Source: Escherichia coli (GTDB taxonomy: Bacteria; Pseudomonadota; Gammaproteobacteria; Enterobacterales; Enterobacteriaceae). From it: a stretch of 603 nucleotides of DNA. Shown piece by piece: positions 1 to 603 of the stretch (position 1 is the stretch's first letter; every line of letters starts with the position of its first letter). Made by a program: the position numbers and the translations under genes. The stretch lies in the NCBI RefSeq assembly GCF_003334255.1, contig NZ_QOWU01000211.1. One strand, written 5' to 3'. The notes under the pieces were generated by a model. It saw only the letters and a program-made list of their open reading frames with translations, did not search any database and had not been told where the DNA came from.

Positions 1-117
1 TCTCAGTGGGCGGCAATAGGCGTGCTGGGGAGTCTGCTGTTTGGGCTGCTGACATATCTGACTAACCTGTATTTCAAGATTAAAGAAGACCGGCGTAAGG
101 CGGCGCGGGGAGAGTAG
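1..117 (+). CDS. essD: Phage class II pinholin, S21 family (lysis protein S), 3' portion only; 5' end lies upstream of the window
   Basis: Frame +1 reads through from base 1 with no stop until TAG 115-117, giving [38 protein letters not shown]. This is a hydrophobic helix ([17 protein letters not shown]) followed by a short, strongly basic/acidic tail. From memory it matches, nearly residue for residue, the C-terminus of phage 21 S21 pinholin and the E. coli prophage EssD/EssQ proteins; that is a recalled match, not a database hit. The symbol is a family-level label: the same protein is called essD, essQ or S depending on the prophage. Confidence 0.85.
107..114 (+). promoter_or_regulatory. 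Shine-Dalgarno / ribosome binding site for the downstream ORF, embedded in the last codons of the holin
   Basis: GGGGAGAG at 107-114 is purine-rich and complementary to the 16S rRNA anti-SD core (GGAG). It lies about 6-9 nt upstream of ATG 121. The holin stop TAG (115-117) sits between the SD and the start, the classic layout for translational coupling. Confidence 0.6.
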
Positions 118-120
118 ACG

Positions 121-603
121 ATGAATAAACAATACGAACTGGTTGTTAAAGGGATAAATAATTACCCGGATAAGATTACTGTTACTGTAGCGCTGGAAAC
201 GGGTGGGTATACGTCACTGTTGTTGCCAAATGTGGTGATTGATCTTGATCGTGTTGAAGGTGCCCCGCTGGAGTTTTACGAAGCTGAGGCGAAAAAACAG
301 GCGAAGCAGTTTTTCATGGATATTGCTGCCGGGTTATGTGAAGGGGATGAACAGTCACAGGAAAAGTGCCTTTGTTCCGAAGATCGGTATACCATACAAA
401 TTAACAATGCATATAACACGATACTGTCAGAAAAAGATGATATCGAATCACGCATTGAAAAACTGGAGAATTGCGTCGTTGAACTGAATAAAAAACTGTC
501 GACGCTGATGCCTTCTGAAGATGCAAAAAAACGCCGCGATGAGCAGTTCGCGGCGTTTTACGATTATTGCATTGAAGTTACTCGCAGGAATTTTGTGAAG
601 GCT
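121..603 (+). CDS. Hypothetical soluble prophage protein with a C-terminal coiled coil, located between holin and the expected endolysin; possibly YdfR/DUF1327-like; 3' end beyond the window
   Basis: ATG at 121 follows a good SD and opens a frame +1 ORF with no stop through base 603 (161 codons seen): MNKQYELVVKGINNYPDKITVTVALETGGYTSLLLPNVVIDLDRVEGAPLEFYEAEAKKQAKQFFMDIAAGLCEGDEQSQEKCLCSEDRYTIQINNAYNTILSEKDDIESRIEKLENCVVELNKKLSTLMPSEDAKKRRDEQFAAFYDYCIEVTRRNFVKA. It uses typical enterobacterial codons (CTG, GAA, AAA, CGC) and has no in-frame stop over 483 nt. It has no hydrophobic stretch long enough for a TMD or signal peptide, and nothing resembling a lysozyme catalytic region. The YdfR/DUF1327 assignment rests on recalled gene order in Qin (essQ-ydfR-rrrQ) and a vaguely remembered N-terminal similarity; it is unverified. 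Confidence 0.8.
   Translation, partial: MNKQYELVVKGINNYPDKITVTVALETGGYTSLLLPNVVIDLDRVEGAPLEFYEAEAKKQAKQFFMDIAAGLCEGDEQSQEKCLCSEDRYTIQINNAYNTILSEKDDIESRIEKLENCVVELNKKLSTLMPSEDAKKRRDEQFAAFYDYCIEVTRRNFVKA

Follow-up and report, generated by a model that had tools for sequence, protein, structure and literature searches.

The stretch of DNA considered here comprises 603 nucleotides (nt) of Escherichia coli (contig NZ_QOWU01000211.1 of assembly GCF_003334255.1; hereafter the window). It contains the 3' end of a phage holin gene, S, and most of the adjacent open reading frame (ORF), which belongs to the DUF1327/YdfR family, and the G+C content drops at the boundary between the two genes. An original prediction, made from the window alone, interpreted this drop as consistent with an ORF that had been acquired from an AT-richer source and inserted as a moron. 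By comparing the window with a complete prophage, related phages and bacterial genomes, it was found that the step probably constitutes the left boundary of an accessory module richer in A+T, which a lambdoid prophage carries between its S21-type holin gene S and its lysozyme gene R. The window has the following features:

1..117, plus strand: final 38 codons and stop TAG of the holin gene S, S21-type (class II), from translation
107..114, plus strand: Shine-Dalgarno (SD)-like GGGGAGAG inside the last holin codons, with GGAG at 109-112; read from the sequence, putative ribosome-binding site
118..120, no strand: spacer ACG, 3 nt, left junction of the variable S-R module, from the junction alignment with phage 933W
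121..603, plus strand: DUF1327/YdfR-family ORF, codons 1-161 of 169 from the ATG at 121, open past the 3' end of the window
528..559 (L001 20528-20559), no strand: perfect inverted repeat, two 12-nt arms around a loop of 8 nt (AAAACGCCGCGA N8 TCGCGGCGTTTT), inside the DUF1327 coding sequence, at the codons KKRRDEQFAAF
578..603 (whole gene L001 20578-20838), minus strand: 3' end of a convergent antisense gene of 86 amino acids (aa), RefSeq coding sequence WP_001625288.1, whose stop is the complement of 578-580

A 40.6-kb prophage locus of E. coli STEC17-183 (L001), which is 99.8% identical to the window, was used as the full context; the induced phages PhiR12_1, _2 and _5 are 99.3% identical to the window. 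Frame 1 of the window contains the final 38 holin codons and then the TAG at 115-117. The original prediction had named the holin as S21-type, and this identity is correct: in the product of the full S gene (L001 19902-20117), residues 5-67 fit Pfam PF04971 'Bacteriophage P21 holin S' with E = 8e-33, and there are further matches to phrog_9876 and phrog_20, both of which are holin families. The product is named 'class II holin family protein' in near-identical RefSeq records, and the allele in the window is the GC-rich, 933W-like one. The complete ORF encodes 169 aa (L001 20121-20630), with its stop codon at 20628-20630, 27 nt past the window.

Base composition across the boundary of S and the ORF

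The hand counts of the original prediction were reproduced exactly (55.0% G+C at 1-120, 42.1% at 121-600, and 30.0% at 121-180), and the location of the drop at a gene boundary was borne out by the holin stop codon and the ORF start codon at 121. Fisher's exact test at this pre-specified boundary, applied to the window only, gave p = 0.014. The step is weakly significant there, and 603 nt alone are insufficient to carry the claim; it is the context of the full prophage that decides, and the G+C step is real. The genes from S to R in L001 have the following G+C content and G+C fraction at third codon positions (GC3):

Holin S: G+C 54.6%, GC3 0.69
DUF1327 ORF: G+C 41.8%, GC3 0.42-0.43
Convergent 86-aa antisense gene: G+C 41.8%, GC3 0.34-0.35
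Lysozyme R: G+C 54.7%, GC3 0.61

Among 54 prophage genes, the mean G+C content is 51.4% (standard deviation 5.1), and the late genes upstream of S have a GC3 of 0.49-0.58. With 12.9 points each, the changes from S to the ORF and from the antisense gene to R exceed all others among the 53 G+C jumps between adjacent genes of the prophage, and the right edge of the low-G+C island at R is as sharp as the left edge. A step of this size between adjoining stretches of 120 nt and 480 nt occurs at 0.9% of prophage positions. The island between S and R (832 bp, 43.0% G+C) belongs to the lowest 1.9% of prophage windows overall and to the lowest 0.1% in the late region. Moreover, the same dip could be found in independent phages, such as BP-4795 (52.3/47.2/53.9% G+C) and Stx1_14744 (54.6/44.1/54.7% G+C).

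The contributions of amino acid composition and codon choice were separated by simulation, in which the codon usage of the prophage served to re-encode each protein (all comparisons of GC3 and codon usage were made within the prophage). From the amino acids, a G+C content of 51.0% would be expected in the holin tail and of 45.6% in the ORF, which means that amino acid composition contributes approximately 5.4 of the 13 points (approximately 40% of the step) and synonymous codon choice approximately 60%. The ORF has a GC3 of 0.43 versus an expected 0.53 (P = 0.004-0.008), and the holin, at 0.63-0.69, lies over its expectation. Across the prophage, codon usage sets the ORF apart from its neighbours and below its own amino acid expectation, a comparison that the original prediction had named as a check.

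A caveat attached to that prediction was that the Gly/Ala/Arg-rich holin tail might force a high G+C content by its amino acids. This caveat fails, as the codons for a tail that is 97% identical in amino acids have a G+C content of only 47.9% in essQ of E. coli K-12 and 45.3% in PhiR63_1, compared with 55% here; therefore, the amino acids of the tail do not force high G+C. A comparison of L001 19902-20117 with L007 6371-6586 (K-12 essQ) and L006 1405-1620 revealed that S21-type holin alleles are either GC-rich (933W-like, GC3 0.63-0.69) or AT-rich (Qin-like, GC3 0.43-0.44). Their proteins are 76-81% identical, with nearly identical C-terminal tails, and third-position differences over the whole gene amount to 24 GC->AT versus 6 AT->GC.

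On the other hand, the step might be an artefact of amino acid composition, of AT-rich gene 5' ends, or of chance. Composition alone (a Gly/Ala/Arg-rich tail next to a Lys/Asn/Glu-rich ORF) gives the drop of 5.4 points, gene 5' ends in the prophage average 4.5 points under gene bodies (Wilcoxon p = 1e-5), and a changepoint test within the window is not significant. The 5' end of the ORF has the second lowest G+C content of the 54 prophage genes; most of the low G+C in its first 60 nt comes from an Asn/Lys/Tyr/Ile-rich N-terminus (expected 35.8%), and the 30% found there is partly a general 5'-end effect. However, approximately 60% of the step is synonymous, with the GC3 of holin and ORF on opposite sides of expectation, and the low-G+C encoding of the same tail elsewhere, the equally sharp edge at R and the repetition of the dip in independent phages also contradict this explanation. 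It is largely refuted by the codon simulation, the island edges and the tail alleles, and must be considered highly improbable.

A variable mosaic block between S and R

The synteny of this region was examined by searching 50,697 phage records with the 1582-bp stretch that spans both S and R. Sixty of the 369 matching records were sampled at even steps, 53 of which hold both S and R. The following distances from S to R were found:

750-754 bp, S and R abut: 933W, Min27 and most Stx2a phages, 37 sampled records
1143-1149 bp, 114-aa YdfR-family gene: BP-4795 and Stx1a phages, 10 sampled records
1528 bp, 183-aa ORF: PhiR63_1, 1 sampled record
1582 bp, the form of the window: PhiR12_1, 1 sampled record
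2050 bp, 263-aa ORF: Stx1_14744, 1 sampled record
1106, 1165 and 1418 bp, other insert forms: vB_EcoS-813R8, PhiR40_1 and Evi, 3 sampled records

An insert lies between S and R in 16 of the 53 records with both genes. Of the complete E. coli genomes (n = 5,426), an S|DUF1327 junction is present in at least 1,286 and a direct S|R junction of the 933W type in at least 647. The gene is variably present at the S-R junction, as the original prediction had proposed to examine, yet it is very common. Neither of the findings that would have spoken against that prediction was obtained: the codon usage of the ORF is not like that of its neighbours, and the gene is not universal in S21-type cassettes.

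The edges of the block could be located by comparison with 933W, which shares the late order of nanS-p-like esterase, S, R and Rz with the reference prophage (an S-R-Rz cassette as in phage 21-type phages) but lacks the DUF1327 block, its R using the putative ribosome-binding site inside S. The S genes of 933W and the window are 99.1% identical in nucleotides and 100% in amino acids. Similarity stops at the S stop codon (TAG here and TAA in 933W), with unlike sequence beyond, and S and R are separated by 832 nt here and by a 4-nt spacer in 933W and most Stx2a phages. The R genes are 91.8% identical overall (60% in the first 27 nt and 97% in the rest). Since the divergence of R is limited to its first 27 nt, the variable block extends from the S stop codon to approximately codon 9 of R.

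Several annotated phage genes occupy the same locus, including ORF47 of BP-4795 (114 aa), orf5 of Stx2 phage 86, and the ORFs of PhiR63_1 (183 aa) and Stx1_14744 (263 aa). The N-terminal domains of such YdfR-family ORFs of lambdoid and Shiga toxin (Stx) phages are 91-99% identical in nucleotides to that of the window; the ORFs differ in linker allele, presence of the helical segment, C-terminal extension (114 to 296 aa) and antisense cargo. In PhiR12_1, the S-R block matches end to end (98.7%), and both a 169-aa 'DUF1327 containing protein' and the antisense gene are annotated. Alignments of four variants and of 28 proteins revealed a nested mosaic with the following segments:

A, 118-366 (coding 121..366), plus strand: conserved DUF1327 N-terminal domain (aa 1-82), present in all forms
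B, approximately 367-415, plus strand: linker, one of two unrelated alleles in the alignments, predicted to be disordered
C, approximately 416-570, plus strand: predicted helical, coiled-coil-like segment, common to Stx1_14744 and PhiR63_1, absent from the 114-aa BP-4795 form
D, from 571 (571..603 in the window), plus strand: ORF tail and antisense-gene module, common to PhiR63_1
E, L001 20874-20949: conserved 76-nt leader before R, common to all insert-bearing forms (L004, L005, L006)

Similarity to BP-4795 stops at position 366 of the window, and megablast coverage breaks at 349-370. Similarity to Stx1_14744 (94%) stops at 570, and segment D is replaced there by unrelated DNA with a 233-aa antisense ORF. 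The mosaic segments inside the window are all AT-rich (43.9, 40.7 and 39.4% G+C).

The module measures approximately 0.83-0.86 kb, reaching relative to 933W-type phages from the S stop codon to near codon 9 of R, and comprises the DUF1327/YdfR gene, the convergent antisense gene, a terminator-like hairpin in the 3' part of the ORF, and the 76-nt leader. It appears to have been exchanged as a nested mosaic among Escherichia, Shigella and Salmonella prophages. The step would then arise because a GC-rich, 933W-like S allele adjoins a block that has 42-47% G+C wherever it is found. The block itself is already known, annotated and widespread, and represents ordinary lambdoid mosaicism. As a case of calibration, a G+C step seen by eye did mark a real mosaic joint, and the phrase 'moron from a foreign donor' over-reads it.

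In the 76-nt leader, which includes the hairpin GCCAGTGCCCACCACTGGC, no structured element was supported, as folding was not better than that of shuffled sequences (z = -1.5, +0.3 and -0.1), and an Rfam search of the S-R region gave no match at E <= 1. No recognisable SD motif lies ahead of the R start in the insert-bearing forms (CCTGATAAATATCC-ATG), whereas R of 933W uses the SD inside S. The 233-aa antisense ORF of the Stx1a phage Stx1_14744 (L005 2254-2955, minus strand) is unannotated and lies over the 3' third of the 263-aa DUF1327 ORF; neither it nor the overlapping plus-strand tail matched a Pfam, PHROG or PADLOC family. Within the DUF1327 family, length varies from 92 to 296 aa by means of modules: two linker alleles, an optional insertion of approximately 29 aa (STPTKNEVLAADEMKETILDRAAHLSCASRLKEHLQ), and alternative long C-termini, made up of segments of phrog_36381 and phrog_26186. 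Across the family, and even in Salmonella, there is little change in the N-domain or in the tail KKRRDEQFAAFYDYCIEVTRRNFVKxFEExKSLQ.

Origin of the block and the moron question

An AT-richer foreign donor, of the kind suggested by the original prediction, is not visible. All homologues found (n = 270) come from Escherichia, Shigella or Salmonella. A search for an AT-rich donor taxon among 100,044 species, with one genome per species, returned only E. albertii, E. coli and two contigs from metagenome-assembled genomes (MAGs). These contigs, L009 (JAIJJM010000943.1, 'Collinsella sp.') and L011 (JAEWTL010000010.1, 'Bacillota bacterium'), are 88-91% identical to essQ-ydfR-rrrQ of the K-12 Qin prophage, and are probably Escherichia prophage DNA that was misbinned into Gram-positive MAGs. 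In the window, and likewise in L001, L002, L004-L008, L010 and L011, the gene directly follows an S21-type holin.

The Qin cryptic prophage provides a useful comparison. Its gene ydfR (b1555, P76160) occupies the same position, after the S21-type essQ and before the lysozyme gene rrrQ, starting 4 nt past the essQ stop. The ydfR stop overlaps the rrrQ start, and Qin lacks the antisense gene and the 76-nt leader. The holin neighbour of ydfR is AT-rich (46.3%, with 43.6% in the DUF1327 gene), so that no compositional step exists there, and PhiR63_1 has none either (44.4/46.2%). A Qin-type S that is as AT-rich as the DUF1327 gene suggests that the step arose where differently composed alleles were joined within one pool, which is to say that, judging from the sequences, it reflects recombination between alleles of a single lambdoid gene pool.

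A related but less probable possibility, which nevertheless deserves serious attention, is that the order S-DUF1327-R is ancestral, as in Qin, that the direct S|R arrangement of 933W-type phages is a deletion, and that GC-rich S and R recombined in around a resident AT-rich gene. The S|DUF1327 junction occurs in more genomes than the direct S|R junction (see the minimum counts above), the cassettes of Qin and PhiR63_1 are AT-rich throughout and show a tight coupling of S, ydfR and R, and the gene follows an S21-type holin in every homologous locus with known upstream sequence (E. albertii, E. coli E69 and a Qin-like contig). However, an insertion and a deletion/replacement would account equally for the TAG/TAA difference and for the diverged first 27 nt of R.

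It has also to be considered that low G+C might be kept by selection, either for unstructured mRNA in coupled translation, for attenuated S-R expression, or for H-NS silencing of the antisense gene in the lysogen. DUF1327 genes have 42-47% G+C in every context examined, and the 5' end of the ORF is among the most AT-rich in the prophage. AT-rich accessory genes of enteric bacteria are typical targets of H-NS. Nevertheless, the near-identical copies across hosts suggest that the gene has spread recently, so that selection would have had little time to act on its composition, and selection is an unlikely explanation of the step.

Whether the gene is a moron depends on how the term is used. Morons of lambdoid phages, such as lambda bor and lom, were reportedly defined by Juhala, Hendrix and colleagues, and in strict usage the term requires a promoter and a terminator that belong to the unit itself. 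Like lambdoid morons, the block adds DNA between two genes that are neighbours in relatives such as 933W, and both its G+C content and its GC3 are below those of both flanks. However, the DUF1327 gene differs from them in having no detectable promoter or terminator of its own, in lying on the strand of the late operon, and in its apparent coupling to S. Its ATG is located 3-4 nt past the S stop in every locus (3 nt here, with GGAG 8 nt ahead inside S). The motif GGGGAGAG is found ahead of the DUF1327 gene also in BP-4795, Stx1_14744, PhiR63_1, Qin and E. albertii, and in 933W it stands ahead of R. A simple consensus scan of L001 19700-21600 gave no plus-strand sigma-70-like promoter. No terminator was found downstream of the ORF. 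The sole hairpin, at 528-559, is part of the coding sequence, with 69 nt between it and the stop, and has the better terminator features on the opposite strand.

The close start codon, the SD in S and the lack of a promoter-like site make the gene look like a coupled passenger of the late operon; most likely it is not an autonomous moron, and its translation would be coupled to that of S on the late transcript, which is Q-antiterminated. A classical moron, that is, an autonomous transcription unit from an AT-richer organism inserted between S and R, is therefore improbable, the more so as all 270 homologues and the sole matches in 100,044 species genomes are Escherichia/Shigella/Salmonella prophage genes after an S21-type holin, and as AT-rich S alleles are present in the same gene pool. 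Thus, the original interpretation is partly supported: extra DNA of distinct composition was confirmed, and an own promoter and terminator were not.

Only the convergent 86-aa antisense gene resembles a lambdoid moron, as it has its own SD (GAGG 5 nt before the ATG) and a terminator-like hairpin. It overlaps the 3' end of the DUF1327 ORF by 53 nt, matches phrog_2572 (unknown function) over its full length (E = 3.6e-50), and has the most deviant codon usage of the region (z = -3.9 versus prophage codon usage). The hairpin at 528-559 starts 18 nt past the antisense-gene stop, with the same layout in PhiR63_1. On the minus strand it folds at -22.5 kcal/mol (z = -4.9, with 0 of 200 shuffles folding as well) and is followed by a run of U7, and on the plus strand it folds at -24.5 kcal/mol (z = -4.3) with a U4 tail only. 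It looks like a bidirectional intrinsic terminator that would work best on the minus strand, where hairpin and U7 run provide the antisense gene with a terminator-type feature. A consensus terminator scan did not list this hairpin, and no promoter was identified for the antisense gene. Judged by these sequence features, the antisense gene looks more like a moron candidate than the DUF1327 ORF does. It had no significant Pfam match, and the label 'DUF1823' that it carries in PhiR12 records was rejected (Pfam E = 0.042). The 296-aa members of the DUF1327 family lack the KRRDE codons that form the 5' arm of the hairpin.

Several observations weigh against the interpretation of the step as the edge of an accessory module. 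An unsupervised single-changepoint scan of the window placed the best break at approximately 49, not at 120 (permutation p = 0.12), and the ORF GC3 of 0.42 is only the sixth lowest of 54 genes, similar to that of early and immunity-region genes. Between L001 and PhiR63_1, there are 4 synonymous and 10 non-synonymous changes in the C-terminal part of the ORF, and 3 and 9, respectively, in the antisense gene, giving no synonymous excess, and hence no demonstration of purifying selection, among few differences (13-18). The promoter search was a consensus scan only, and an unusual promoter may lie inside S. The data fit an insertion here and a deletion in 933W alike. Finally, the link of the family to RNase E (see below) depends on a homologue that is only 39% identical and whose overexpression altered few transcripts.

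The DUF1327/YdfR protein

Residues 1-80 of the ORF product match Pfam PF07041 (DUF1327; model positions 1-80 of 93, E = 1.4e-34, 118.6 bits), and the full length matches phrog_2091 (E = 1e-84), with additional matches to phrog 1085, 2735 and 406, all of unknown function. A protein of identical length (169 aa) heads a 446-member database cluster named 'DUF1327 domain-containing protein'. The product shares 39% identity over 99 aa with YdfR of K-12 (E = 4e-22), which has 103 aa and lacks the 90-aa linker and helical C-terminal extension of the window protein. An AlphaFold2 model based on the 28-sequence alignment has a mean predicted local distance difference test (pLDDT) score of 62 and a predicted template modelling (TM) score of 0.41. 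It suggests three beta strands and one long helix at residues 1-73 (pLDDT 65-90), a disordered linker at 73-106 (below 50), and a helical hairpin at 108-168 (helices 108-129 and 133-168, about 60). A Foldseek search of the PDB with this model gave no match below E = 0.1 (TM below 0.25), and a sequence search of solved structures returned nothing below E = 0.09. NCBIfam contained nothing for the ORF or the antisense gene. Two PADLOC candidates, PDC-S11 (E = 0.0027, 15 bits, coiled-coil-type) and PbeC (E = 0.018), were rejected as low-complexity/helical noise.

Several phage modulators of RNase E are known, namely T4 Srd, phiKZ Dip and T7 gp0.7, which can be considered functional analogues only. 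The window protein would resemble them only if the interaction between YdfR and RNase E holds for it; structure-database searches found no sequence or fold similarity, and no DUF1327 protein has a reported effect on RNase E activity, which distinguishes the family from these proteins. The sole experimental lead to the function comes from a 2026 study (PMC13232886), in which K-12 YdfR was recovered in a two-hybrid screen, its residues 1-72 bound the catalytic N-terminal half of RNase E, and the protein co-purified with RNase E 1-598 and with RNA. In the same study, YdfR overproduction changed few transcripts, and RNA sequencing of K-12 under standard growth gave almost no ydfR reads (PMC13232886). 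The conserved family core DRxEGAxLEFYEAxA, seen in the 28-protein alignment, falls within the YdfR 1-72 interaction region. By analogy, the preferred, although doubtful, guess is that the window protein may serve as a late-expressed RNase E- or RNA-binding accessory factor. In the literature, ydfR was not found together with holin, and DUF1327 appeared in a single paper, on genome comparison.

A broader and rather improbable proposal is that the S-R junction serves as a dedicated cargo site. An RNase E-binding DUF1327 N-domain would be fused there to swappable C-terminal modules, and interchangeable antisense genes, expressed from the lysogen, would use the 3' end of the gene both as their landing pad and as a bidirectional terminator; the protein would tune RNase E late in infection, for example through S-R-Rz mRNA stability and lysis timing. 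The DUF1327 family also occurs in Stx-phage-like prophages, in the lysis cassette on which the release of toxin and phage depends. Should binding to RNase E, as reported for YdfR, extend to the family, its genes could influence lysis timing or the expression of late genes in Stx phages, which would be of some practical interest. The remaining interest lies in the function of a very common lysis-cassette gene and in the coding-embedded hairpin that this gene shares with interchangeable antisense genes.

In the best-matching genome, the RefSeq annotation (PGAP) treats the ORF as a pseudogene 'missing C-terminus' and ends it at the DUF1327 domain (L001 20121-20366). The frame of 170 codons is intact despite this label, and the 169-aa protein has a separate accession elsewhere; the label is an annotation inconsistency caused by the mosaic C-terminus. 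The late region of L001 is Stx-phage-like (15974-17194), with a methyltransferase, tRNA genes for Ile, Arg and Arg, and a nanS-p-like SASA esterase, and contains only an unannotated gap of approximately 970 bp at the position of the stx genes in Stx phages. Thus, the L001 prophage appears to be a stx-less relative of Stx phages within an STEC strain.

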